From positions 1,066-65,065 of the forward strand of contig JANYLK010000030.1 of NCBI GenBank assembly GCA_025357875.1: a stretch of DNA of 64,000 bases, written 5' to 3'. Under the pieces are notes generated by a model. It was given only the letters and a program-made list of their open reading frames with translations, had not been told where the DNA came from and made no database searches. The stretch is from Granulicella sp. (lineage in GTDB: Bacteria; Acidobacteriota; Terriglobia; Terriglobales; Acidobacteriaceae). A program made the position numbers and the translations under genes. This document shows positions 882 through 12,875 of the stretch, piece by piece (position 1 is the stretch's first letter; every line of letters starts with the position of its first letter).

Positions 882-1595
882 TTAGGCAGAGCGCCCTAAA
901 TGTTCTGGCGGAACTAAATTCAGATAGCCATTCGTCGGTGGGATAAGTGCATCATCCTGCGAGCCACCAGCGTTGCTTCGGATGAGTGTAAAAATGTCTA
1001 ATACTGTAGCAATACTGCGGATGTTCCCTGCAACGCTCATAACCTCTTCGATACCGGTATGTCTGTGTGCCAGGGTCTCAAGGCGTTCACTCACATTGCG
1101 TAGTTTTTCAGCTTCCGACAGAATATCCTCGAAAGGTCCGAAGTAGCAGGTACCTGTCGTGGAGGTGCTTGTTACTGTCGTGTCCAACTTCGCTTTCACT
1201 TCAAGCTGAAGGGGTGCACCTTCTATCAACCGCACCGTTGCCGCCTCCCCAAGGAGGGTAAGAAATAGTCCGAGCAGCTGTGCAATCAGAATGGTTCCAA
1301 CCTCCCCGCCTTCATCCGTATCCATTTGGAATTCAACTTCGGCGAGACCGCGCAAACCTCCATTCGCCGTTATCTGCACCGCACTGAGCCTTGGAGACTG
1401 CGACTTAGCCAGAGATACAGCCCGAGAGGCGAGCGCCTGAAAGCCGTCGACCCCTACGGGTGCGCAGAGCTGGCGACGGAGCTTCTCATAGACGCGAAGA
1501 GTGGCAAGCTCAGTGTGTGCGGAACACGGATCAGCATCAATTTCGGAGGCAATGAGCCTGCGGGCCCAATCGCGAATCATTGGTGGAGGAAGCAT
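882..1595 (-). CDS. Uncharacterised helical protein, paralog of the 1942-2361 gene, with an extra C-terminal helical domain
   Basis: 237-aa ATG ORF with aggagag upstream. It shares RVxxKLRRxL, GxxGFxxLxxRA, LAKxxSPxL and LIAxLLGL..GE..T.RL with the divergent neighbour. Confidence 0.75.
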   Translation of the reverse strand: MLPPPMIRDWARRLIASEIDADPCSAHTELATLRVYEKLRRQLCAPVGVDGFQALASRAVSLAKSQSPRLSAVQITANGGLRGLAEVEFQMDTDEGGEVGTILIAQLLGLFLTLLGEAATVRLIEGAPLQLEVKAKLDTTVTSTSTTGTCYFGPFEDILSEAEKLRNVSERLETLAHRHTGIEEVMSVAGNIRSIATVLDIFTLIRSNAGGSQDDALIPPTNGYLNLVPPEHLGRSA

Positions 1596-1780
1596 TAGTT
1601 CTCTCCTTGCGTGCTACGCCTCACTTTGAATGTGAGGATTTCATCGCGACAATACTTCTAGCCAGTTGCTTTGGCAATGATAATCCCGGCGCATTTGCAC
1701 GCTGACGCCACACAGACCAACCTATCTGAAATATTCTTTGGAAGCCGAGCACTATTGACCAATATGACTCGCCGTTCGTC

Positions 1781-1856
1781 GTTCTGCGCCGTAGTCGAGA
1801 TTACGGCTGTATATCAGTGTTCTGCGCCGTAGTCGAGATTACGGCTGTATATCAGT
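1781..1856. repeat. Perfect tandem duplication of a 38-bp unit (2 copies)
   Basis: gttctgcgccgtagtcgagattacggctgtatatcagt at 1781-1818 and 1819-1856. Each unit contains the near-palindrome gccgta-gtcgagat-tacggc. Confidence 0.95.
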
Positions 1857-1941
1857 CATTTTAGAGTTGGAAGTGATCTGCTTTGATCAGTCAGCGGATT
1901 CTCTGCGGAGTACACTCTGTGTTATACAAGACGGTTAGTAG

Positions 1942-2361
1942 ATGGTAAGAAGCGCAGATATTCCGACGACACGCGATCTTGCCCAGCAACTTCTGGCTTA
2001 CGAAGGGGCTGAGGCAGGTCCTTCCATGGCCGATGTGCACGCGGTGTCTCGGGTGTGTGACAAGCTCCGCCGACCTTTGACTACGCTGGCTGGGGCAGCG
2101 GGATTTCGTTCGCTCCTGGCGCGCGCGTTGACCTTGGCAAAGCAGGAGTCTCCTGTCCTTGGCGCATGGGAAGTTAAGCCGGACGGCTCGCTGAAGGGCC
2201 TGAATGGCGAAGCGGCGCAGTCGGGTGCCGTGCTCATTGCGCACTTACTCGGGCTGATGATCACATTCATCGGCGAGTCTCTCACGCTCCGACTCCTCCA
2301 TGATGTGTGGCTGGATCTACCCCGTTCTGAAATTAAACCTGGAAGGAAAGAATCAGAATGA
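1942..2361 (+). CDS. Uncharacterised small helical protein, first gene of the KaiC-like operon
   Basis: 139-aa ORF. Its stop overlaps the KaiC-like start (ATGA overlap at 2358-2361), and it is a paralog of 882-1595. Confidence 0.8.
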   Translation: MVRSADIPTTRDLAQQLLAYEGAEAGPSMADVHAVSRVCDKLRRPLTTLAGAAGFRSLLARALTLAKQESPVLGAWEVKPDGSLKGLNGEAAQSGAVLIAHLLGLMITFIGESLTLRLLHDVWLDLPRSEIKPGRKESE

Positions 2362-3863
2362 ATGAGCAGAGCAGGGTCAAAATAAACCAGTTGCCGACCG
2401 GAGTACCCGGACTGGATGAGATACTCGGCGGCGGCCTGCCCGAATTTTCCTTCAACATCATCGCCGGATCGCCCGGATGCGGTAAAACCACCTTGGCGCA
2501 TCAGTTCATCTTCGCCAACGCCACGGTGGAGCGGCCTGCCATTTACTTCACCGTACTGGGCGAACCTGCGCTGAAAATGCTGCGCTACCAGCAGCAGTTC
2601 ACCTTCTTCGATGCATCGAAGCTGAACAACGCCGTGCGCTTCGTTAACCTGAGTCAGGAACTCGTCGATCGCGGACTACAAGGCGTCCTGGAGGAGATAT
2701 CTAGACAGGTGGAAGCCGCCAACCCAAGTATTGTGGTCGTGGACTCCTTCCGCACCGTGCTCCGCAGCGAGATGCACAACGGCAAGGACATGGCTGTGCA
2801 AACGTTTGTACAGCAATTGGCGCTGCTACTCACCAGTTGGGAGGCCACCACGTTCCTGATTGGCGAGTATTCCGAATCGGAGGTGCGCGACAATCCCGTC
2901 TTCACTGTTTCCGACGGTCTGTTCTGGCTTTTTCAGCAAGTCGATCGAAACTCTGTTGTGCGCAAGATGCAGGTTATGAAGCTGCGAGGACAGGCTTCGG
3001 TGCCGGGTCTGCACACCTTCCGCATCACCGAAGCCGGGCTGCAGGCTTTCTCGCGCACCCTTGGCCTGTTAGGCCAAAGGAAAACAGCCAGGAGTATCAA
3101 GCGCCTTTCCATGGGGATTCCGGCGTTAGACGAGATGATGGGTGGAGGCATTCCCGAAGGAGACAGCCTATTGATCGCCGGGTCATCCGGGACGGGAAAA
3201 TCACTGATGGCGACGCAATTCCTTGCGGCAGGCATACGTGCGGGCGAGCCGGGCATTGCAGCGGTATTTGAGGAGCGGCCTAACGAATACACAGCACGCG
3301 CCTCGGAATTCGGACTCGACCTTCAAACGCCGCTTGCCGATGGCAGCCTCGAAGTGATCTACCTGCGACCGCTGGACCTGTCGGTGGACGAGATGATGCA
3401 GGAAATCCTTGATGCCGTCAAAAGGACGGGAGCAAAGCGTTTGGTGATCGATTCCCTGGCCGGCTTCGAGATGGCATTGGCACCCGCCTTCCGCGCCGAC
3501 TTTCGCGAATCGCTCTATCGTATGATCTTCGCCCTCACAGCTATCGGCATCACCGTTCTCAGCACCCTGGAGATGCCGGAGACATTCACCGAGTTGCTTT
3601 TCAGCAGCTATTCCATCTCGTTTCTCACCGACGATATTATTCGGATGCGTTATGTTGAGATCGATGGTGAGCTCAGCCAGATTATGATGGTGGTGAAAAT
3701 GCGCAGGGGTGCGCACAGCCGGGAGATCCGCCAATATCAGATCACCACCGAGGGAATTGTCATCGGGGCGCGCTTGAAGAACTACGTAGACCTCATCACC
3801 GGAATCCCACAACCGCTCGCGGTCTTGCACTCGGAAGATTTGCTGCTCAACCGGAAGATTTAA
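2358..3863 (+). CDS. KaiC-like (RAD55/KaiC family) double-domain RecA-superfamily ATPase
   Basis: Two repeats of the LxxGIPGLDEMxGGG motif, two Walker A motifs (GSPGCGKT, GSSGTGKS), two Walker B motifs (VVVDS, LVIDS), and KLRG / KMRRG motifs. 501 aa. Confidence 0.9.
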   Translation: MNEQSRVKINQLPTGVPGLDEILGGGLPEFSFNIIAGSPGCGKTTLAHQFIFANATVERPAIYFTVLGEPALKMLRYQQQFTFFDASKLNNAVRFVNLSQELVDRGLQGVLEEISRQVEAANPSIVVVDSFRTVLRSEMHNGKDMAVQTFVQQLALLLTSWEATTFLIGEYSESEVRDNPVFTVSDGLFWLFQQVDRNSVVRKMQVMKLRGQASVPGLHTFRITEAGLQAFSRTLGLLGQRKTARSIKRLSMGIPALDEMMGGGIPEGDSLLIAGSSGTGKSLMATQFLAAGIRAGEPGIAAVFEERPNEYTARASEFGLDLQTPLADGSLEVIYLRPLDLSVDEMMQEILDAVKRTGAKRLVIDSLAGFEMALAPAFRADFRESLYRMIFALTAIGITVLSTLEMPETFTELLFSSYSISFLTDDIIRMRYVEIDGELSQIMMVVKMRRGAHSREIRQYQITTEGIVIGARLKNYVDLITGIPQPLAVLHSEDLLLNRKI

Positions 3864-3875
3864 TATAGAGGTACG

Positions 3876-5108
3876 GTGGCAACCGAAAAGGTCGATTACG
3901 CCGAGAAGGAAGTGGACCTGCCGGCCCTCTGTCGCGCCGCGGCCGACTTTTCGCCTACGCCAATGGCTGCGTTGAGCGGTCCCCAACACACACTCCGCTA
4001 CGTCAACCTGGCCTTTTGCCTGCTTACCGGCAAATCGAAAGATGAATTGATCGGAACCGCCTTCTCCGGCATTGCTCCCTCCGCGAACCAATGCACGTTA
4101 CTGCTAGACCGGGTTGCCAAGACAGGGCTTGCCGATAGCCATACTGGCCAGGAGCATCCTGGTATCCACCCGCACTACTGGTCGTACGCGATGTGGCCGT
4201 TGCTCGGGGCGAACCATAACCACCTTGGCATCATGGTCCAGGTAACTCAGGCGGTCCGATTTCATGAGGATGCGGTCGTCATGAATCAGGCGTTGCTCCT
4301 GGGCTCGGTGCGTCAGCACGAGTTGAGGGAAGCAGCGGAACTGCTGAACGTGCAACTTCAGGCCGCAATCACCCGGGGAAAGAAGGCGGAAACCGCGCTG
4401 ATCGGCAGCGAGAAGCTGGCATCTGCCGGACGCATGGCTGCTGTGCTCGCGCATGAGATTAACAACCCTCTTGAAGCGGTGATGAACTTGTTGTTCCTCG
4501 CCCAATCTACAGGCGAAATACCTTTGGTCATCCGTCGGTATTTGGAGTCGGCTGACGGTGAGTTGAAGCGGATTGCCCACATCACCCGGCAGACGCTTGG
4601 TTTCTATCGTGAGTCGTCCGCGTCGACGACTTTTCCCGTTGTGAATCTGCTTAATTCCGTCATCGACCTTCTGCAGGCAAAGATGGAGTCCACACACGTC
4701 ATTGTGGAAAAGCAGTGCGACGATCTGCTGCAAATCACCGCGAACTTCGGCGAACTGCGGCAAGTGATCTCAAACTTATTGCTCAACAGCCTCGATGCGC
4801 TTGGCAAAGGAGGCAGGGTCACGCTGCGGGCTTCCAAGTCGCTAAACCCCATGGATGGAAGCCCGCGCATTCGGATTACTGTCGCCGATAATGGCCAGGG
4901 TATCAGCGCGGCGGCACTGCCGAGGATATTTGAGCCATTTTTCACGACCAAGGGCTCGACAGGAAATGGCCTGGGCTTATGGGTAACCAGGCAGCTCATC
5001 GAGAAACACGGGGGCTCCATTTGGGTTCGTTCGCGCACATCCGAGCCGCAGGGAACAACGTTTTCCATGGTTTTGCCAGTGCGTGCCCATGACACAACTT
5101 CAATGTGA
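3876..5108 (+). CDS. PAS-domain sensor histidine kinase (soluble)
   Basis: H-box AHEINNPL, N-box NLLLNSLDA, G1 DNGQGI, F-box IFEPFFTTK, G2 GNGLGL. N-terminal PAS-like segment (YVNLAFCLLTGKSKDELIG). No TM helix seen. Confidence 0.92.
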   Translation: MATEKVDYAEKEVDLPALCRAAADFSPTPMAALSGPQHTLRYVNLAFCLLTGKSKDELIGTAFSGIAPSANQCTLLLDRVAKTGLADSHTGQEHPGIHPHYWSYAMWPLLGANHNHLGIMVQVTQAVRFHEDAVVMNQALLLGSVRQHELREAAELLNVQLQAAITRGKKAETALIGSEKLASAGRMAAVLAHEINNPLEAVMNLLFLAQSTGEIPLVIRRYLESADGELKRIAHITRQTLGFYRESSASTTFPVVNLLNSVIDLLQAKMESTHVIVEKQCDDLLQITANFGELRQVISNLLLNSLDALGKGGRVTLRASKSLNPMDGSPRIRITVADNGQGISAAALPRIFEPFFTTKGSTGNGLGLWVTRQLIEKHGGSIWVRSRTSEPQGTTFSMVLPVRAHDTTSM

Positions 5109-5138
5109 TCGCGACTGGGGCTTCCCACATTGAAGGAG

Positions 5139-5180
5139 ATTTTCGAGCTGTTCTTCACGACAAAAGGCTTGATCGGGACT
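5139..5180 (+). pseudogene. Short relic of a second histidine kinase C-terminus (F-box)
   Basis: Translates as IFELFFTTKGLIGT, echoing IFEPFFTTKGSTG of the upstream kinase. The rest of the ORF has no kinase features. Confidence 0.45.
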
Positions 5181-6057
5181 GAACACGTGGAGACAAACAA
5201 CTCATCCATGGTAAAGAGTAGATCGTCGTTCGTGCCCAATACTGCGGCGCGTAGCCAGCCAACCGCTGTGTCCTATGTCGTTCAACCTAGTCTCGAGGCA
5301 CGGTGGGTTAGCCGTTCATCGCTCAGCTGATCAGTCGAGAAACGATTGCATGATTTCGTCGTTCCTGAACCAAGCCAAGCGTCAAAGGATCGAATTTGTC
5401 TTTCCATGGTTTGCAATGGTCGTAAGTTCTTTGCTAAGGACGCGAACTGTGCGAAAGACTTGTCTCAATAACCTATTCGCGATCGTAAAGGAAAGCCTCT
5501 TACCATCGGCGGCGCCCCCGGAGTATCCAGCGTACTGAGAGCCTTCTCACCAGTTGAGGTAATAGAAGGCTCTTGAGATCGAGACGCGTACTCCCTTCGC
5601 GGGAGCGAGCAATCATGTCAAAGGCCTCCGGGATGAAAAGCGTCGCGTTAGACCGATTGGGGATATGCTACCGCCCTTTGCAAGGAAGGACGTGTCGCAC
5701 TCCTGTTGTTTGTGTCTGTTAGCGGGTACAGCGATTCTCCACGGATTTACAACGATGGGCGATGTAATCGGCGCTGTCGAGGTATAAGGTGCAGAGTTGT
5801 GAATAATAGGGGTTGCCACTTTAGCGGCCATCGATCGCCTCCTATCAACACGGTACTGAATCGCACATGGGCTGGTCTGGTCAATACGGACCACAACCTC
5901 AGTGATCCCCGCTTGAAAAGAAAGCGTCACAACAAAGTCAGTAGTCTTTCCTCAGAGTCCGATGGCATGACAAGCGCATGGCGCAGTGTGGCATATAGGA
6001 GAACCGCCGAATACAGGGCAGTCTTGCCGTCCTCAAATGACACAACAACTCCATTTT

Positions 6058-6317
6058 CCAGCGCGCCATGATCGCTTCTTTGATACCGGAGGCGTGGCAA
6101 AACTGTGCCAGCGCGATCTTGCCGCGAACCGGATGCATCTCCACGCCATTTCGCAGAACATCGAGCGTTGCCGCGAGCACCGATCTGAGCGCGCAGACGT
6201 TCCAGCAGCCGCTTATCCGCATCGAGACCGTGACCGTTGGCCAATGCCTGGCACGCCTCAGGCTGCAACCCCTGCACCTACGCAATCACGTTCTCGGAAA
6301 ACAGCGAGCGCCCGGTC
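6058..6317 (-). pseudogene. Decayed N-terminal fragment of a type I restriction endonuclease R subunit (HsdR-like)
   Basis: Joined across frames it reads DRALA/LFSENVIA*VQGLQPEACQALANGHGLDADKRLLERLRAQIGARG/TLDVLRNGVEM..KIALAQFCHASGIKEAIMARW. This resembles HsdR N-termini as I recall them (DRARALFP..WVQATQPKAW..L..RLRxQLDxRGTLDVLRHG). It has an in-frame TAG at 6278-6280 and about two frameshifts. Confidence 0.55.
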
Positions 6318-6447
6318 GGAAGCCTTCGATTCAGGGAAACTGCCCGGAAACATGCCTTGACAAGTATTTGGTACAAGGACGGCGCCGTAGAAACTCGGGC
6401 ACAGCAGCGCCAATCTGATTCACCGTTGCGGCCCAACGCCGTGAACC

Positions 6448-7073
6448 ATGAAAAAAACTGATAATTCAGGCACAGTCTATCTCCGCGGCGACATCTGGTG
6501 GGTTAAAACCGGGTCAACGGCCGGTCCGTTTACAAGTCTTCAAAGTCAGCCAAGCTGGCTGACGAAACCAAGCTCAGGGACAAATTGATAGCGCAGCGTC
6601 ACCGGGGCGAATTCAAGGGTGGAGCTTCCGATACGGTTACAATCGGCAAACTACTGGACGATGTGCTCAAGTCCGACATCACCGGATCTACCCGCTACGT
6701 CTGGAAGGCAGTCATCGAGAAGAACATCCGGCCCTTCTTCGGCAAAATACGCGCAGTCAAACTGACAACGGACAAGATGGACGCCTACCGCGAGAGGCGG
6801 AAGGGGGAGGAACGCACCGATGCAGCAGCGAATCGAGAAGTTTCGATCGTGCGGACGGCGTTCAACAACGCCCGCAAGCGCGCCCCTCTCAAGGTCAACG
6901 TGGTTCCCTATTTCCCCATGATCGAGGAGAAGACTATCCGCCCGGGCTACCTGGCTGATGACGTGTACGACCGTCTCCGCGACGAGTTGCCTCAGTACCT
7001 GAAGGCAATCTTTGTGTGCGCCTATGAAACCGGGATGCGCAAGAATGAACGGTTGGTCCTTGCTTTTTCCTGA
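6448..7073 (+). pseudogene. Truncated, frameshifted tyrosine recombinase / phage integrase
   Basis: ATG at 6448 gives MKKTDNSGTVYLRGDIWWVK. After a frameshift near 6508 it continues RVNGRSVYKSS...ANREVSIVRTAFN...AYETGMRKNE and stops just after the catalytic Arg box. The distal H-x-x-R and Tyr motifs are missing. Confidence 0.8.
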
Positions 7074-7092
7074 TACAAAATAGGGTTGTCGG

Positions 7093-10000
7093 TTACTGCA
7101 CAGTGAGGCTGATGGTGCCGTTGGCTGTGGTTGCACCCGAAGTTCCGGTTACCGTTACGGTGTAAGAACCCGGGGTGGTTCCGGGGGCAACAGTTGAGCT
7201 ATTTGGGGCGCTCGATCCACAGCCGGCGAAGCCCAAGGCCACTCCGATCGATAACAGCATTATGAGAAAGCCCGGCCAATTGCGCCGTCGGGGAACGCCG
7301 ACAAACATTACGAAGGCCAAGACGCTGCCCGCGGCCGAAGTTAGAAAGAGCCTGCTGCCCCTGTTCTCGGCCAATGATCCGGCGGTCGTGAAGATTGTCA
7401 GGGTCGAGGTTTGCGCGGTGGTGCCGATGAAGGAAACCGCGGAAGGAGACAGCGTGCAGGTAGCCGGGCTGTTGGCTGCAGCTGGAGTGACTGCGCAGTT
7501 GAGAGCGACCGTACCGGTGAAGCCGTTCGTCGGCGAGATGGAGATGACTGACGTATTCCCTATTACATCGCCGTGATGCACCGTAATATTATTTCCGCTG
7601 AACGCAAAGCCTGGTGTGGCAACAACGCTGAAAGAGACACCGGTCGCTGTGCTCAAGGTGCCGGAGGTTCCGGTGATTGTGATGTTCGCTGGACCACCGA
7701 TCGTCGCCGTGCCGGCGGCCGTCAGTGTCAGCACCTGCGTTCCGGCAACAGTTCCAACCGTGAAGCTGGCAGTGACTCCCGCCGGCAGGCCGTTCGCGGC
7801 AAGGGCCACGGTTCCATTGAATCCTCCCAGCGATGTCACGGTGATCGTGCTGGTCGCGCTGCTGGCCTGGGCAATGGTCAGCGTGGCCGGCGCGGCCACA
7901 AGTGTAAAGCTTGGAGGGACGTTGACGGTGAGCGCGATGATAATTGAATTAGTCAAGGTCCCAGCGGTTCCGGTGACGGTCACCGGGACAGCACCACCGG
8001 CCGACGCTGCAGCGCTGGCGCTCAGGGTGAGCGTGGTTGAGGCAGTGGCGGGATTTGTGGAGAATGATGCTGTAACGCCGCTGGGCAAACCGGTGGCCGC
8101 GAGGTTAACTCCGCCGGCAAAGCCGTTCGCGCCTGTAATCGTAATAGAATCGGTGACGCTGGTGCCTTGAACGATGGACACAGACGCCGATGCAGGAGCC
8201 AGATTGAAACTTGGCTGCAGGCTGACGGTCAACGTAATGGACGTAGCTGCGGTCAGGTTTCCGGAGGTTCCGGTGATATTGGTGGTGGCCGTGCCAACAG
8301 CCGCGGTTGCGGAAGCAGTGAAGGTGACGACACTGGTCCCGGTTGCGGGGTTGGTGCCAAAGGTCGCCGTGACGCCCGTGGGCAGTCCGGTAGATGCAAG
8401 TGTGACTGGACCTGTAAAGCCATAAGCAGCGGTAACATTGACGGTCGCAGTCCCAGACGCACCCTGCACCAAACTTAGCGAGGGAGCGGACGAAGCCAGT
8501 GTGAAGCTGGGTGCCCCGTTGACGGTGAGCGCGATGGAGGTAGATGCGCTTAGAGTTCCGGAAATCGCGTTGATGGTAATGGTCGATGTGCCAACCGCCG
8601 CGGCGCTATTGGCGGTGAATGTCAAGAGGCTGGAGCCGGTGGCGGGATTGGTCGCAAAGGCCGCCGTAACGCCGCTAGGCAAGCCGATCGCCGACAGAGT
8701 AACGCTGCCGGTAAAGCCGCCAAACGCTACCACGGAGATCGTACTATTGCCGGTGCTCCCCTGAAGGACCGCTAGAGTTGCCGGTGACGGCGACAGCGTA
8801 AAGCTGGGTGCAGTGTTGACGGTTACGGCGATGGTGGTGGTTTGCGTGACCGAACCAGAGGTGCCGGTAATCGTCACCGAGGTGGGACCGCCTGTCCCGG
8901 CCGTTGCAGCCGAGGTGAGGGTCAGCACACTGGTCCCGGTAGTGGAGGGGCTTGGGCTGAAGGAGGCTGTGACCCCTGCAGGTAGGCCACTGGCGGAAAG
9001 CGTAACGCTGCTCGCAAATGCTCCTTGATTTGTAACGGTGATGGTCGACGTAGTGCTGGCGCCCTGTGCGACCGTGAGAGAGCTGGAAGAAAAAGAGAGC
9101 GTAAAGCCAGAGCCGACCCCGCTTACCAGGATGGAAGCCGTGCTACCCGCCTGATCAGTCCCTGTGAGCGAGAGGCTGTCCGGGCCCGCAAGCGTAGGAG
9201 TAAAGCTCACCGTGGTTGTGAAGGATGCGCCTCCGCTGAGTGTGCTGGTGCAGGAGACGGACGGTATTACGGTCGCTGTCGCCATGGCGCTCGTCGATGC
9301 TACAAAAGCCAGCGACGGAGCCGGACTTCCGCCACAGTTGGTGTCGTTCAGCAGAGACGTAACTTGGCTGGTTGTTGTCGACGGACTAATCGCCGTACCC
9401 ACCGTTGAGGCCGGGACCGTTACGCTGTTCACCGTGACCTGGGCAACCGTATCGCCAGCGGTTCCCAGGGAGTTGGAATACGAGGCCAGATAAAGGTTCC
9501 CTTGCGTGTCCAGGGCCAGTGTCTTCGCTCCCTGGGGCGATACAGCATAGAGTGCCGTGGGTTTGCCGCCTGCGACAGGAATCCCGCCGAGGGTGTCTGG
9601 AAAGGCAAAGATACCGTCGCTCTGATCCGCAAAATATACGGTGTCGCCGCTCGCACTTCTCAGGACCGCCACGCCGTCCAGTTGATTGTCGAAGGTGCCG
9701 ACTGGCGACGGCGTCACGGTATAGAGCACTGTTGGCGACGAAACGTACCCGGTCGCGACTCCGTTGAAGCCCGTGCCCGCCGTAATCGGCAGTTCGTTCA
9801 GGTTGGAGGAGAAACTGGTGATTGCGTACGTCCCGAGATTCACGTAAATCGCTGAATCCGCGAAGAAGAGATTGCCTGCCGAATCGAAGGAGATGGGACC
9901 GACCAGCGGTTGGCCGGAGCTCAACGAGGGTGCGGGGGAGACTTTAGGCTCCGTGAAGATCAGTACGGGTGCGCCAGTGCCGCCCAGGCAGGTCAGGTTG

Positions 10001-12165
10001 CACTCGTAAATACTGTTACCGCCGCTGGAACCATCGCCGGCCGTCGCATAGAAAAGATCGCCCTTGGCGTCGAAGGCGAGCGAGGCTGGGTTGACAGCAC
10101 CCAAGTTGGTGGGCAGGACGCATTCCGTGGTGCTTGCTGCAGTGCAGACGGCGATAGAAGCCGTGGGCGTGGTGAATGCGGCGTAGCCGCCATTGGCAGC
10201 GCCGCCGATATATGGCAGCTTGACGATCGAGTTGACCGGCCCGTAGGGATTGCCGACGTAGATGTTGTCTTTGCTATCGACTGTCAACGCGCTTGCGCTG
10301 GCCCATGGGCCGAGTGTGGTGGCGGCTCCGGTTTGAGCGTTGAACAGAACCAGGTTTGAGCTGTTGGCCACAGCAATGGAGCCATTGCTGTTGACTGCGA
10401 AGCTGTTTCCAGCGGGATTGCCGGAGGCATACGCATAGCCGCCCAGGCTGGCACGCCAGTTGACCTGGCTCACCAACATCCGTGCGTTGGCGGGAACAGG
10501 GACCGGCGGTAACGTCGAAACCGTGAAGCTGTTGGTGACCGCCGTCGCCGCGGAGTACGTTCCGTTGCCAGCCTGCGAAGCCGTCAGAGTGCAGGTACCA
10601 GCCGCAATCAGCGACGCGGTGGCGGCACTGTTATTTACACTGCAGACGGATGCAGTGCTGGACGTGAAGGTTACCGGCAGACCAGAGCTTGCCGTGGCGT
10701 TCAGGCTCAGCGTGGTGCCAAGAGTCTGGGCGCCGGAATTGGCGAAGGTGATCGTTTGAGCAGTCGGCGAGCCGACGGTGAGGGCGATCGATGTGGTGGC
10801 GGTGATCGAGCCAAAGGTGCCCGTCACCGTGACGGGGATTGGCCCAGCAGTCGCCGCGGAACTGCTGGCGGTAAGAGTGAGCACCTGTGAACCTGCGACC
10901 GTCGAGTTGGCAAAGCTGGCGGTAACGCCACTGGGAAGGCCGCTGACGTCAAGCGTGACTGCACCGCTAAAGCCACCCTGCGTCGTGACCGAGATGACAT
11001 CTGTGGTGCTGAGTCCCTGTCCCACGGGAAGAGTAGATTTAGCAGGGGCAATTGTGAAGCCTGCGATGGTGGACCCGTACCATTTGGGCAGAGTGATCGT
11101 GCCCGCGGGCTTGTTCTGGGTAGAGTAGCCCGTGTCATTTGCCGAGGGCGCGGAGACCCTCCAGTCCCACCAGAAGACGCCCTTCATCCACGCAGTCTGG
11201 GCACTGAAGACCTGAAAAAATGCTTCATAACAATCCTGCTGCTCGGTCGGATCATACGTGCCGCCTAGACTGGCGTAGGGTGTCTCGTTGGTGCCGGGAG
11301 CACTGACATACCCAATCTCGGTAAAGATCAGCGGCTTGTTGTAGGTACTCTGCAGATTCTTGAGCGCCGATACGATGTTGAAGCCGGACTTATTGTTAGT
11401 CCACGCCGATATAAGTGCAGCAAGCGAAGGATCAGTCTGATTAGTAAGAGGAAAATAGCCATCCACGCCGATGATGTCGAGGTCCGCCCAAAAAGACACA
11501 GAGGTAAATTCGTCGCCAGCTCCGGTCGCATTCGACGCATACGTGAGCGTCAGGCTCGGATACTGGATGCGCAACTGGGTGATGATCGTCTCCCAATTGC
11601 TCTTGTACGCGGCGCCGCTAAGCGACTTGAACTCAGTGCCGATGACAAGCATCCCGACATTGTTCTGAACCGCAATCTGAGCGTAGTGCAGGATAAATGT
11701 TTGATAGCTGGCAAACCACGCAGTTGGATTGGTTGGAGCGAAGTTTCCTCGGAAGACGCCATCGAGCGAATCGACCTGAGGCTTCATCGAGACCACCAGA
11801 CCCTGGGCCTGTAGACTTCGGATCGCGCTGACAACCGCTGCGTCCGTGGGGCTTAGCGGATCGCGACTGCTGTTATAGCCAGGCGTACTGGGTGTCTCGG
11901 GAGCGATGACGTTCGATGTGGACGTCTGCTGGTACTGAGTCGCCATCACGGCCGTATAGTTGGCGCCGGTCGCACGGATGCTGCTGGCCGCGGAACTGCT
12001 ACTGAGAAATTCATTTGCCTGATACGAGATGAAGTTAAGTCCGTTGTAGGTAAAGCCGGACTGACTTTGCGCGAAGACACCTGGGGTGGACGAGGCCATC
12101 ATCAGCGTGGCGATGGCGCTGGACACGCCGAGAGAACGGATAAAAGAGTGGGAGGTTACGCGCAT
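7093..12165 (-). CDS. Large secreted multidomain glycoside hydrolase: GH113-type TIM barrel, beta-propeller-like region, tandem Ig-like repeats and C-terminal membrane tail
   Basis: Signal peptide (start placed at ATG 12165, 5 nt after the upstream stop). GH113-like motifs MKPQVD, LVIGTE, LDIIGVDGYFPL, PLIFTEIGY, GVFWWDW. Ser/Thr/Ala-rich ~100-aa repeats. Confidence 0.8.
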   Translation of the reverse strand: MRVTSHSFIRSLGVSSAIATLMMASSTPGVFAQSQSGFTYNGLNFISYQANEFLSSSSAASSIRATGANYTAVMATQYQQTSTSNVIAPETPSTPGYNSSRDPLSPTDAAVVSAIRSLQAQGLVVSMKPQVDSLDGVFRGNFAPTNPTAWFASYQTFILHYAQIAVQNNVGMLVIGTEFKSLSGAAYKSNWETIITQLRIQYPSLTLTYASNATGAGDEFTSVSFWADLDIIGVDGYFPLTNQTDPSLAALISAWTNNKSGFNIVSALKNLQSTYNKPLIFTEIGYVSAPGTNETPYASLGGTYDPTEQQDCYEAFFQVFSAQTAWMKGVFWWDWRVSAPSANDTGYSTQNKPAGTITLPKWYGSTIAGFTIAPAKSTLPVGQGLSTTDVISVTTQGGFSGAVTLDVSGLPSGVTASFANSTVAGSQVLTLTASSSAATAGPIPVTVTGTFGSITATTSIALTVGSPTAQTITFANSGAQTLGTTLSLNATASSGLPVTFTSSTASVCSVNNSAATASLIAAGTCTLTASQAGNGTYSAATAVTNSFTVSTLPPVPVPANARMLVSQVNWRASLGGYAYASGNPAGNSFAVNSNGSIAVANSSNLVLFNAQTGAATTLGPWASASALTVDSKDNIYVGNPYGPVNSIVKLPYIGGAANGGYAAFTTPTASIAVCTAASTTECVLPTNLGAVNPASLAFDAKGDLFYATAGDGSSGGNSIYECNLTCLGGTGAPVLIFTEPKVSPAPSLSSGQPLVGPISFDSAGNLFFADSAIYVNLGTYAITSFSSNLNELPITAGTGFNGVATGYVSSPTVLYTVTPSPVGTFDNQLDGVAVLRSASGDTVYFADQSDGIFAFPDTLGGIPVAGGKPTALYAVSPQGAKTLALDTQGNLYLASYSNSLGTAGDTVAQVTVNSVTVPASTVGTAISPSTTTSQVTSLLNDTNCGGSPAPSLAFVASTSAMATATVIPSVSCTSTLSGGASFTTTVSFTPTLAGPDSLSLTGTDQAGSTASILVSGVGSGFTLSFSSSSLTVAQGASTTSTITVTNQGAFASSVTLSASGLPAGVTASFSPSPSTTGTSVLTLTSAATAGTGGPTSVTITGTSGSVTQTTTIAVTVNTAPSFTLSPSPATLAVLQGSTGNSTISVVAFGGFTGSVTLSAIGLPSGVTAAFATNPATGSSLLTFTANSAAAVGTSTITINAISGTLSASTSIALTVNGAPSFTLASSAPSLSLVQGASGTATVNVTAAYGFTGPVTLASTGLPTGVTATFGTNPATGTSVVTFTASATAAVGTATTNITGTSGNLTAATSITLTVSLQPSFNLAPASASVSIVQGTSVTDSITITGANGFAGGVNLAATGLPSGVTASFSTNPATASTTLTLSASAAASAGGAVPVTVTGTAGTLTNSIIIALTVNVPPSFTLVAAPATLTIAQASSATSTITVTSLGGFNGTVALAANGLPAGVTASFTVGTVAGTQVLTLTAAGTATIGGPANITITGTSGTLSTATGVSFSVVATPGFAFSGNNITVHHGDVIGNTSVISISPTNGFTGTVALNCAVTPAAANSPATCTLSPSAVSFIGTTAQTSTLTIFTTAGSLAENRGSRLFLTSAAGSVLAFVMFVGVPRRRNWPGFLIMLLSIGVALGFAGCGSSAPNSSTVAPGTTPGSYTVTVTGTSGATTANGTISLTVQ
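7610..9108 (-). repeat. Five tandem ~300-bp (~100-aa) intragenic Ig-like repeats
   Basis: Each unit follows FTL....L.V.QG.S.T..ITV....GF.G.VTL...GLP.GVTA.F...P.T..S.LT.TA. A sixth copy follows the GH domain near 11070-10790. Confidence 0.85.
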
Positions 12166-12170
12166 TGAGT

Positions 12171-12875
12171 TCACTGTTTCACGCCTGTCAGTGTGAGGCA
12201 CCAGCTAGGTACGGCAAGCTGTTCGCCAGCGTGAAGGCCATTCCTTCCACCAACCCCGTTTACGGTTGAGCACTCCTCGTGAGCCGGGCAACCGCCTTCG
12301 CACCCGACAATCTTTGTCACCGCGATCTTGACCGCACGGACCGTAAAGCTCTGAACCGTGCCGCAGTAGCCGTCTCCGCCCCAGGAGCGGACGCAGACTG
12401 TGTCGCCAACCGACTTGCCCGTGGAGTGGGCGCCCGACGCGAGTAGCCAAGCCGCCATAGGTATGTCATCGCTGTTTTCCGCAACCAGCAGAGCCGAGCC
12501 GCCGAAGCGTGACTCAATGTTGAGGTTGGCACCGGCTGCGACAAGCGCCTTGGCAGTTTCGCCCTGATGATTTTGAACTGCAGCGATGAGCGCAGTGCGT
12601 CCTCCAGCGTCCGTCGCGTTGACGTCGGCACCGCTTGCGAGCAGCATTCTGACCGTGCTCGTCTCTCCAGCCTGCGCGGCGACAATTAGCCGAGTAAGTC
12701 CGCGTGCATCGCGCGCATCCTGGACTGCGACTGGAGGGTGGGGTGTCACAACTGCTTCCTGCGGCCGCGCGCAGGGAACGACGACGAGCAGCGCGAGAGC
12801 CGAAGTCGCAACGCTAACCCATAACCTAAACTTGCTGACAAAGAACGAACTCTGTGAAATCTTCGCAACGCGCAT
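12171..12875 (-). CDS. Secreted ankyrin-repeat protein with a Cys-rich C-terminal domain
   Basis: GGGAGA RBS, signal peptide and ankyrin repeats (LLASGADVNATDAGGRTALIAAV; LVAAGANLNIESRFGGSALLVA). The C-terminal ~80 aa contain 6 Cys. Confidence 0.85.
   Translation of the reverse strand: MRVAKISQSSFFVSKFRLWVSVATSALALLVVVPCARPQEAVVTPHPPVAVQDARDARGLTRLIVAAQAGETSTVRMLLASGADVNATDAGGRTALIAAVQNHQGETAKALVAAGANLNIESRFGGSALLVAENSDDIPMAAWLLASGAHSTGKSVGDTVCVRSWGGDGYCGTVQSFTVRAVKIAVTKIVGCEGGCPAHEECSTVNGVGGRNGLHAGEQLAVPSWCLTLTGVKQ

Follow-up and report, generated by a model that had tools for sequence, protein, structure and literature searches.

For prokaryotic timekeeping and stress signaling, it is an open question how KaiC homologues outside the cyanobacteria are controlled in the absence of KaiA and often also of KaiB. 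It is raised by a locus in a stretch of 64 kb of the genome of the soil/ice acidobacterium Granulicella sp. (contig JANYLK010000030.1, positions 1,066 to 65,065, hereafter called the window), where the gene for a double-domain KaiC-like ATPase is preceded by that for a small helical protein (S) and followed by that for a histidine kinase, while the gene for a longer relative of S (L) is transcribed divergently. An earlier note on the sequence of the window had taken small protein, ATPase and kinase together as one signaling module. The comparison of related loci leads us to a different core, consisting of S and the ATPase. In our reading, to which we assign a probability of about 0.6, the cassette represents a KaiC-like ATPase that is regulated by S, together with L where it is present, and whose state is passed on by the output gene that happens to accompany it.

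The linkage between S and the ATPase carries this reading and was surveyed from both sides. On the S side, a varied set of family members containing the motif TFIGExLTLR was collected and the 80 best-matching loci were taken, with one genome per GTDB species. On the KaiC side, metagenome contigs were scanned with the peptide patterns GKTTLAHQ and A[IL]KMLRYQ, S itself not being used, and the 80 best matches were retained. A gene for a KaiC-like ATPase (E values of 1e-208 to 0 against the window protein) is situated directly downstream of S in 78 out of 78 evaluable non-redundant genome loci, and an S gene is found directly upstream of the ATPase gene in all 78 evaluable cases among the 80 metagenome loci, the encoded ATPases exhibiting 67-95% identity. 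The choice of the TFIGExLTLR motif biases the first sample, which is offset by the scan from the KaiC side and by members lacking the motif: three of these and a locus on a Paracoccus plasmid, that is four out of four further contexts, also exhibit the S-KaiC order. Overall, adjacency was observed in 160 of 160 evaluable loci from at least five phyla (Acidobacteriota, Planctomycetota, Verrucomicrobiota, Pseudomonadota and Abditibacteriota), the S-side loci including Terriglobia, Pyrinomonadaceae, Planctomycetota, Opitutales, one betaproteobacterium, Abditibacteriaceae and others. Since the arrangement recurs across 160 loci it is not due to chance. Among 154 loci, the stop codon of S and the start codon of the ATPase gene overlap by 4 nucleotides (nt) in 103 and are no more than 20 nt apart in 147. 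The earlier note had suggested a survey of gene neighborhoods and had cast the small proteins as partners of the ATPase; with respect to linkage this is borne out, and S and L are supported as dedicated partners of the KaiC-like ATPase, which they would presumably bind.

In the window, the S and ATPase genes share the sequence ATGA at 2358-2361, and 12 nt (3864-3875) separate the ATPase stop codon from the start of the kinase gene. The four open reading frames, the overlap and the gap described earlier were thereby confirmed from the list of open reading frames and the sequence itself (Table 1), and so was the paralogy of the divergent gene, as S and L share 41% identity over 128 amino acids (E 8e-18). 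L is a genuine conserved component of the module: an L protein with homologous C-terminal extension accompanies S in about 50 loci, either divergently or in tandem, so that roughly half of the loci possess the long form. When the window was compared with 14 related Acidobacteriaceae loci by blastn, similarity was confined to about 905 to about 5101 and the flanks were unrelated in every case. Neither a KaiB-like reading frame nor a receiver domain is encoded in the 64 kb of the window according to phmmer searches with CheY, Spo0F and KaiB (best E 0.55), in agreement with the earlier note; the search worked, as the same queries readily detect receivers in related loci. KaiB was not found in the approximately 160 related loci either.

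Table 1. Features of the S/L-KaiC cassette in the window (positions refer to the window; +, forward strand; -, reverse strand)
Feature	Positions	Strand	Basis
L, long-form member of the small-protein family, 237 amino acids	882-1595	-	List of open reading frames, paralogy to S
Divergent intergenic region	1596-1941		Between the L and S genes
S, short-form small helical protein, 139 amino acids	1942-2361	+	Directly upstream of the KaiC-like gene
Two-domain KaiC-like ATPase, 501 amino acids	2358-3863	+	PF06745
Soluble orphan histidine kinase, 410 amino acids, GTG start	3876-5108	+	HisKA and HATPase_c
Cassette as a unit	905-5101		Extent of DNA similarity to related loci

Three architectures were distinguished. 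The first, which is that of the window and occurs in Acidobacteriaceae, consists of a divergent L gene followed by S, KaiC-like ATPase and kinase. In the second, L, S and the ATPase are encoded in tandem, no kinase gene is within reach, and in most loci a Crp/Fnr-type regulator (cNMP_binding plus HTH_Crp_2) is encoded just upstream on the same strand. This regulator, seen in the loci numbered L017-L058 and in many of L103-L168 (for example L047, 6279-9946), may represent an alternative output or input. In the third, a lone S is followed by the ATPase and a hybrid kinase of about 550 amino acids with a receiver domain. Of 126 evaluable loci, 51 have a kinase gene after the ATPase gene (28 of the 60 from genomes, 23 of the 66 from metagenomes); elsewhere its place is taken by a hybrid kinase, by an HWE kinase with a response regulator, by the upstream Crp-like regulator or by nothing. 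What never varies is the pair of S and the KaiC-like ATPase, which therefore form the core; L often joins as a third member, and the output can be exchanged. As loci without a kinase retain S as well, S is not a kinase-specific adaptor. Of the module proposed earlier, the pair of S and ATPase stands and the kinase as a fixed part does not.

The ATPase contains two PF06745 KaiC domains (E 1e-76) with Walker A motifs at residues 37-44 (GSPGCGKT, CI) and 275-282 (GSSGTGKS, CII), and its description as a two-domain KaiC-like protein in the earlier note is correct. It stays below the NCBIfam cut-offs for KaiC equivalogs (NF006799, 250.6 versus 408 bits; TIGR02655, 156.9 versus 546 bits), and its closest structurally solved relatives are all KaiC proteins (8zn5_B, E 3e-65; Synechococcus elongatus KaiC, about 2e-50; Rhodobacter sphaeroides KaiC, about 1e-40). 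Within the clade, identity between phyla amounts to 64-90%. In alignments with KaiC, S421 corresponds to S431, F422 to T432 and S416 to T426. Invariant among 63 orthologues are F304-E305-E306, D365, S416, S421 and F422 in CII as well as G68-E69 and D129 in CI, where a single glutamate, E69 (TVLGEP), takes the place of E77-E78 of KaiC (FEETP) in a register that was aligned by eye. As one conserved serine adjoins an invariant phenylalanine, phosphorylation, if it occurs, would be restricted to a single site. A site at S421 only would fit a switch or an hourglass, unlike the ordered two-site cycle of KaiC, and it is in this conditional sense that the idea of the module as a timer or switch can be upheld. 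Conservation ends after LITGIP484, the final 17 or so residues being variable.

The small proteins, on the other hand, stand apart from everything we compared them with. S has 935 matches in a collection of 5.8 billion proteins, all of which are unnamed or termed hypothetical, although one source labels a member of the family as VirB2-like pilin. In an exhaustive profile search, 2,928 clusters formed at 50% identity reached E values of 1e-3 or below (1,539 of them 1e-10 or below), and a profile search of clusters at the 90% level yielded at least 3,910. No Pfam, NCBIfam or PADLOC family could be assigned to S or L, and none of 59 diverse members of the S family matched any Pfam model. A profile of the family found no match among PDB sequences (best E 0.47), KaiA and KaiB included; the predicted structure of S retrieved nothing significant among PDB folds (best E 0.98, template modeling (TM) score 0.2), that of L had no PDB fold match (best E for S and L about 1, TM score about 0.2), and S matched neither the predicted viral structures of BFVD nor PHROGs. 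A relationship of S or L to KaiA or KaiB was rejected on the basis of these negative results from PDB folds and profiles, Pfam, NCBIfam, PADLOC, PHROGs and viral folds. Informative domain fusions were sought among the longer members of the family and do not occur, all of these members being of the L form. AlphaFold2 predicts S, from an alignment of 59 sequences, as a compact protein (mean predicted local distance difference test score (pLDDT) 85.4, predicted TM score (pTM) 0.79) that has four helices (residues 10-25, 32-69, 89-110 and 112-122) besides a small hairpin (77-85). Among the conserved residues of S are E21, R61, G111-E112 and W123. In L, an N-terminal domain homologous to S is joined by a disordered linker to a helical hairpin (156-178 and 183-209), behind which the chain ends in a disordered tail.

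On these grounds we propose the following mechanism. The double-domain KaiC-like ATPase is presumably hexameric. Translational coupling would ensure that S is made in fixed proportion to it, and L would be a second, longer paralogue that was added in this lineage. As regulatory subunits, S and L would most likely attach to the ATPase and thereby set its ATPase activity or autophosphorylation state. With S421 as the one conserved candidate phospho-acceptor and phenylalanine at the T432 position, the ATPase could work as a one-site on/off switch or hourglass and not as a two-site oscillator. Its state would be read by the attached output gene product, in the window the soluble PAS-histidine kinase, which probably docks on the ATPase via its PAS-like N-terminal domain as in Pseudomonas and may signal to a response regulator encoded elsewhere. 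Binding of S and L to the ATPase, the direction of regulation, phosphorylation of S421 and control of the kinase by the ATPase are what we infer here. A farther-reaching version, in which S and L constitute a new, structurally novel class of KaiC regulators that replaces KaiA and KaiB functionally in a widespread non-cyanobacterial clade, combined with a one-site phospho-switch or hourglass and plug-in outputs, is put forward tentatively and with the odds against it.

Several points weigh against regulation of the ATPase by S and L. The 160 loci do not count as independent in phylogenetic terms, since many stem from related Terriglobia and both scans comprise the 80 best matches. S and L resemble neither KaiA nor KaiB nor any other known protein, and since no such similarity was detected their role is argued from context, from which their contact with the ATPase is likewise deduced. 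In cyanobacteria, KaiA grips the C-terminal tail of KaiC; the unconserved tail of the KaiC-like protein argues against a KaiA-like mode of binding. Finally, parts of the cassette appear to be dispensable or decaying in some genomes. In the window, the L gene has lost the stop codon at which its relatives end (...GYLN*), TGA being changed to TTA in comparison with locus L003, so that 11 residues are added beyond the conserved C-terminus (882-917, reverse strand). On the chromosome of the cultured Tunturiibacter psychrotolerans X4BP1 (L008, 6969-9962), L, S and the KaiC-like gene are present and the kinase gene is missing, similarity to the window stopping 40 nt past the ATPase stop codon. This strain could serve as a natural comparison strain without kinase.

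Among the alternatives, the one that survives best turns the direction of the signal around: S and L would be clients or outputs of the ATPase, either substrates that it phosphorylates or remodels or an effector whose release is the signal, and the kinase or the Crp-like protein would be the upstream input. Strict linkage and translational coupling suit a substrate or effector equally well, and in the kinase-less loci, where S and L are the only conserved partners, something must be the output. Furthermore, the extreme C-terminus of L is kept within each architecture (...PPTNGYLN in divergent, ...KSPKPN in tandem and ...Y[LVK]M in other loci), and a conserved end after a disordered tail suggests a docking peptide; such tails are typical of docking or degron-like peptides. 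Against this it has to be held that S is devoid of recognizable DNA-binding or enzymatic motifs, that kinases, response regulators and Crp proteins are classic output devices, and that KaiC-like proteins of Pseudomonas signal to the adjacent kinase. While gene context alone cannot decide, we prefer S and L as regulators and consider their role as clients or effectors unlikely.

The hydrophobicity of S and L bears the possibility that they act as membrane anchors which tether ATPase and kinase via a hydrophobic helix around residues 95-115. The maximum Kyte-Doolittle hydropathy over 19 residues reaches 1.89 for S and 1.83 for L, the family median is 1.92 and 53 of 59 members attain at least 1.6; the pilin label of a single family member points in the same direction. 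The criterion is weak, as the soluble ATPase itself scores 1.69. Moreover, in the compact AlphaFold bundle (pTM 0.79) the helix packs against the others with pLDDT values above 90, it contains a conserved His/Gln followed by invariant glutamate and arginine residues, and its uninterrupted hydrophobicity extends over about 16 residues only. Membrane anchoring is therefore rated as very unlikely.

A further alternative is suggested by the mobility of the cassette, which was encountered as a discrete, mobile-looking unit in differing genomic contexts. In an Edaphobacter metagenome-assembled genome (MAG), the same four genes are placed amid a Y2 transposase, a phage-like gene and a Y-family polymerase gene. 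On the 310-kb plasmid of Paracoccus liaowanqingii (NZ_CP040765.1; L083, 4109-7227), which was found by tblastn, genes for S, the KaiC-like protein, an HWE kinase and a response regulator, annotated as hypothetical protein, ‘ATPase domain-containing protein’, HWE kinase and response regulator, lie between IS110/IS5 and IS21 insertion sequences. With its unrelated flanks, transposase and integrase remnants nearby and bracketing insertion sequences, the cassette might be a mobile accessory island for anti-phage defense or stress survival in which an ATPase of the RecA superfamily acts on nucleic acid or invaders, and the ATPase has weak matches in PADLOC-DB 2.0 (mad8, 7.7e-10; IetA, 3e-5). These matches cover the generic P-loop only, and no match was obtained for S, L or the kinase. 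An identity of 64-90% across phyla is far above that usual for defense genes, the recurrent partners are kinases, response regulators and the Crp-like regulator, and S421 and the catalytic pair of CII are KaiC-like, all of which makes a defense island even less probable than a membrane anchor. Last, a self-sustained circadian oscillator with S and L in place of KaiA and KaiB, which the combination of a double-domain ATPase with two small partners parallels in number, is hardly credible, because the invariant phenylalanine at the second phosphosite makes the ordered two-site cycle of KaiC impossible, the ATPase remains under the KaiC equivalog cut-offs, many loci encode a single small protein and KaiB is absent from all loci surveyed.

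If the ATPase is regulated by S and L and read out by the kinase in the window, contact to the kinase is the step for which a precedent exists. In Pseudomonas, a KaiC-like protein self-associates and binds the kinase encoded next to it, the PAS domain of the latter being sufficient, as revealed by two-hybrid analysis and co-immunoprecipitation; its phosphorylation, at one or two sites, varies as cultures age, and stress resistance is impaired in mutants (Terrettaz et al., bioRxiv 10.1101/2022.01.26.477890). The window shares with these modules a double-domain KaiC-like ATPase whose gene forms an operon with that of a PAS-containing histidine kinase, in the absence of KaiA and KaiB, and the phosphosite of Pseudomonas group I, a serine or threonine paired with an aromatic residue, has its counterpart in the S-F pair of the window ATPase. 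A pairing of this kind has already been described (bioRxiv 10.1101/2022.01.26.477890). Conserved neighbors in Pseudomonas are the kinase, a response regulator with a single domain, an EPS sortase and CsrA/RsmA, and no small helical protein is listed (bioRxiv 10.1101/2022.01.26.477890). Here, in contrast, S is invariant and the kinase optional, while a small upstream partner is not reported there; and the single-domain response regulator found nearby in Pseudomonas groups I and III is missing from the 64 kb of the window and present in some related loci.

The kinase of the window has complete HisKA and HATPase_c domains (H193 in HEINNPL, N at 300, G1 at 338, F at 352, G2 at 363) and is regarded as soluble because it lacks a hydrophobic segment. 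Its N-terminus (about residues 20-127) matches PAS families only, with 20.2 bits against a Pfam cut-off of 21.8, and homologues reach PAS_4 or PAS_9, such that the soluble PAS kinase of the earlier note holds with regard to solubility, the PAS assignment being sub-threshold in the window protein itself and attained in its homologues. The N-terminal 135 residues have 31 matches in large databases, mostly fragments, all of which appear to be cassette-borne, and the genes for the two most distant homologues on long contigs (48% and 56% identity) directly follow KaiC-like genes; the specificity of the domain for KaiC rests on these few cases. A search of plasmids with the kinase N-terminus yielded no match. 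Residues 136-150, MNQALLLGSVRQHEL, had been put forward as an ATPase-docking helix. This proposal finds no support: the segment is the linker between the PAS and the dimerization and histidine phosphotransfer (DHp) domains, at the place of the signaling helices that connect such domains, its motif MN[QE]ALL..S..RQHEL is kept in the KaiC-adjacent kinases of the first and third architectures and also occurs in second kinases that are encoded 2-4 kb away and not adjacent to KaiC, and the PAS domain suffices for binding in Pseudomonas (bioRxiv 10.1101/2022.01.26.477890).

Compared with cyanobacterial KaiABC, the cassette has in common the two-domain KaiC fold, the catalytic glutamate pair of CII, a serine at the S431 position, small partners encoded alongside and a histidine kinase as output. 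Unlike in KaiABC with SasA/CikA-RpaA, KaiA and KaiB are absent, S and L resembling them neither in sequence nor in predicted fold, phenylalanine stands at the T432 position, CI has one glutamate instead of two (by eye) and the ATPase falls below the KaiC equivalog cut-offs. The N-terminus of SasA is a KaiB-like KaiC-binding domain with thioredoxin fold, whereas that of the window kinase is PAS-like. Archaeal KaiC-like ATPases have reportedly been proposed, by Makarova, Galperin and Koonin in mBio in 2017, to act as hubs of signal transduction that are operon-linked to variable input and output proteins; they are said to be mostly single-domain proteins with other partner families. In purple bacteria, KaiBC hourglasses employ KaiC without KaiA as a timer that is not self-sustained, and in many cases a kinase is found in the vicinity (Rhodopseudomonas palustris, PMC4794148; Rhodobacter sphaeroides, PDB 8dba/8fwi). 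These systems retain KaiB, whereas the window cassette lacks it and has the S/L family, and its ATPase is more distant from R. sphaeroides KaiC (E 1e-40) than from cyanobacterial-type KaiC (E 3e-65).

The pairing of ATPase and kinase is thus known in kind. New is an obligate, unannotated, fold-orphan partner family that defines the module and that we did not find in the literature searched. S proteins of about 140 amino acids, whose genes are inseparable from those of one highly conserved KaiC-like clade and linked to them by translational coupling, provide a concrete and testable candidate for KaiC control, and cultured hosts exist in Tunturiibacter, Granulicella, Edaphobacter and Paracoccus. 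The kinase as an exchangeable output outside the core alters the reading of such operons. If the farther-reaching proposal is true, the class of S/L regulators would extend over several phyla of bacteria from soil, peat, ice and aquatic habitats.

Evidence for expression comes from the environment. Metagenomes of glaciers, ice and sediment contain the window sequence, and RNA contigs from two ice metatranscriptomes cover L, S, ATPase and kinase, single contigs crossing the S/ATPase (2007-2542) and ATPase/kinase junctions (3808-4057). The flank at 6142-8000 is represented by zero RNA contigs in these metatranscriptomes despite even DNA depth. The RNA evidence consists of assembled contigs and metatranscriptomes can carry DNA; with this proviso, the data support transcription of the cassette in situ and co-transcription of S, ATPase and kinase. 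In the region between L and S, two blocks are conserved in cassettes of the window type, at about 1747-1763 (TTGACC) and about 1877-1916 (TTTGATCA...GTACACT). Both hold TTGACC/TTGATC-like elements (TTGACCAAT in many relatives) and could be candidate promoters or operator sites; the spacing of 22 nt between the element and TAnACT is atypical for sigma-70. A promoter-like site for the L gene is located at 1677-1649 on the reverse strand, and a sigma-70 scan of the L/S region performed no better than one of shuffled sequence. Within the length-variable spacer between the conserved blocks, a perfect tandem duplication of 38 nt (GTTCTGCGCCGTAGTCGAGATTACGGCTGTATATCAGT, twice) occupies positions 1781-1856; it is absent from all related loci compared and is consequently specific for the window.

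Some observations concern the distribution and surroundings of the cassette. In two MAGs labeled Rhodanobacteraceae and Lichenicola (L007 and L014, Proteobacteria), the S protein is 68-81% identical to that of the acidobacterial window type and the divergent L is included, which reflects either horizontal transfer or mis-binning. The cassette of the window is positioned between gene-poor DNA and a weak fragment of an integrase N-terminus at 6585-7073, where an open reading frame of 162 amino acids matches phage-integrase N-termini weakly (E 4e-4, below the cut-off). On either side (1-880 and 5109-7090), genes are scarce and open reading frames short and unconserved, and the guanine plus cytosine (GC) content is 0.51 at the left edge compared with 0.56-0.63 elsewhere in the window; by appearance, the flanking DNA looks like decayed mobile DNA. 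Beyond it, on the reverse strand at 7093-12201, an open reading frame of 1,702 amino acids with repeated Thr/Ser/Ala-rich modules (GxTASF...LTxTA) and a hydrophobic segment at its C-terminus looks like that of a giant surface protein. Over the right two-thirds of the window (22000 to 64000) the GC skew stays negative throughout and falls as low as -0.27, and the long open reading frames there are mostly on the minus strand.

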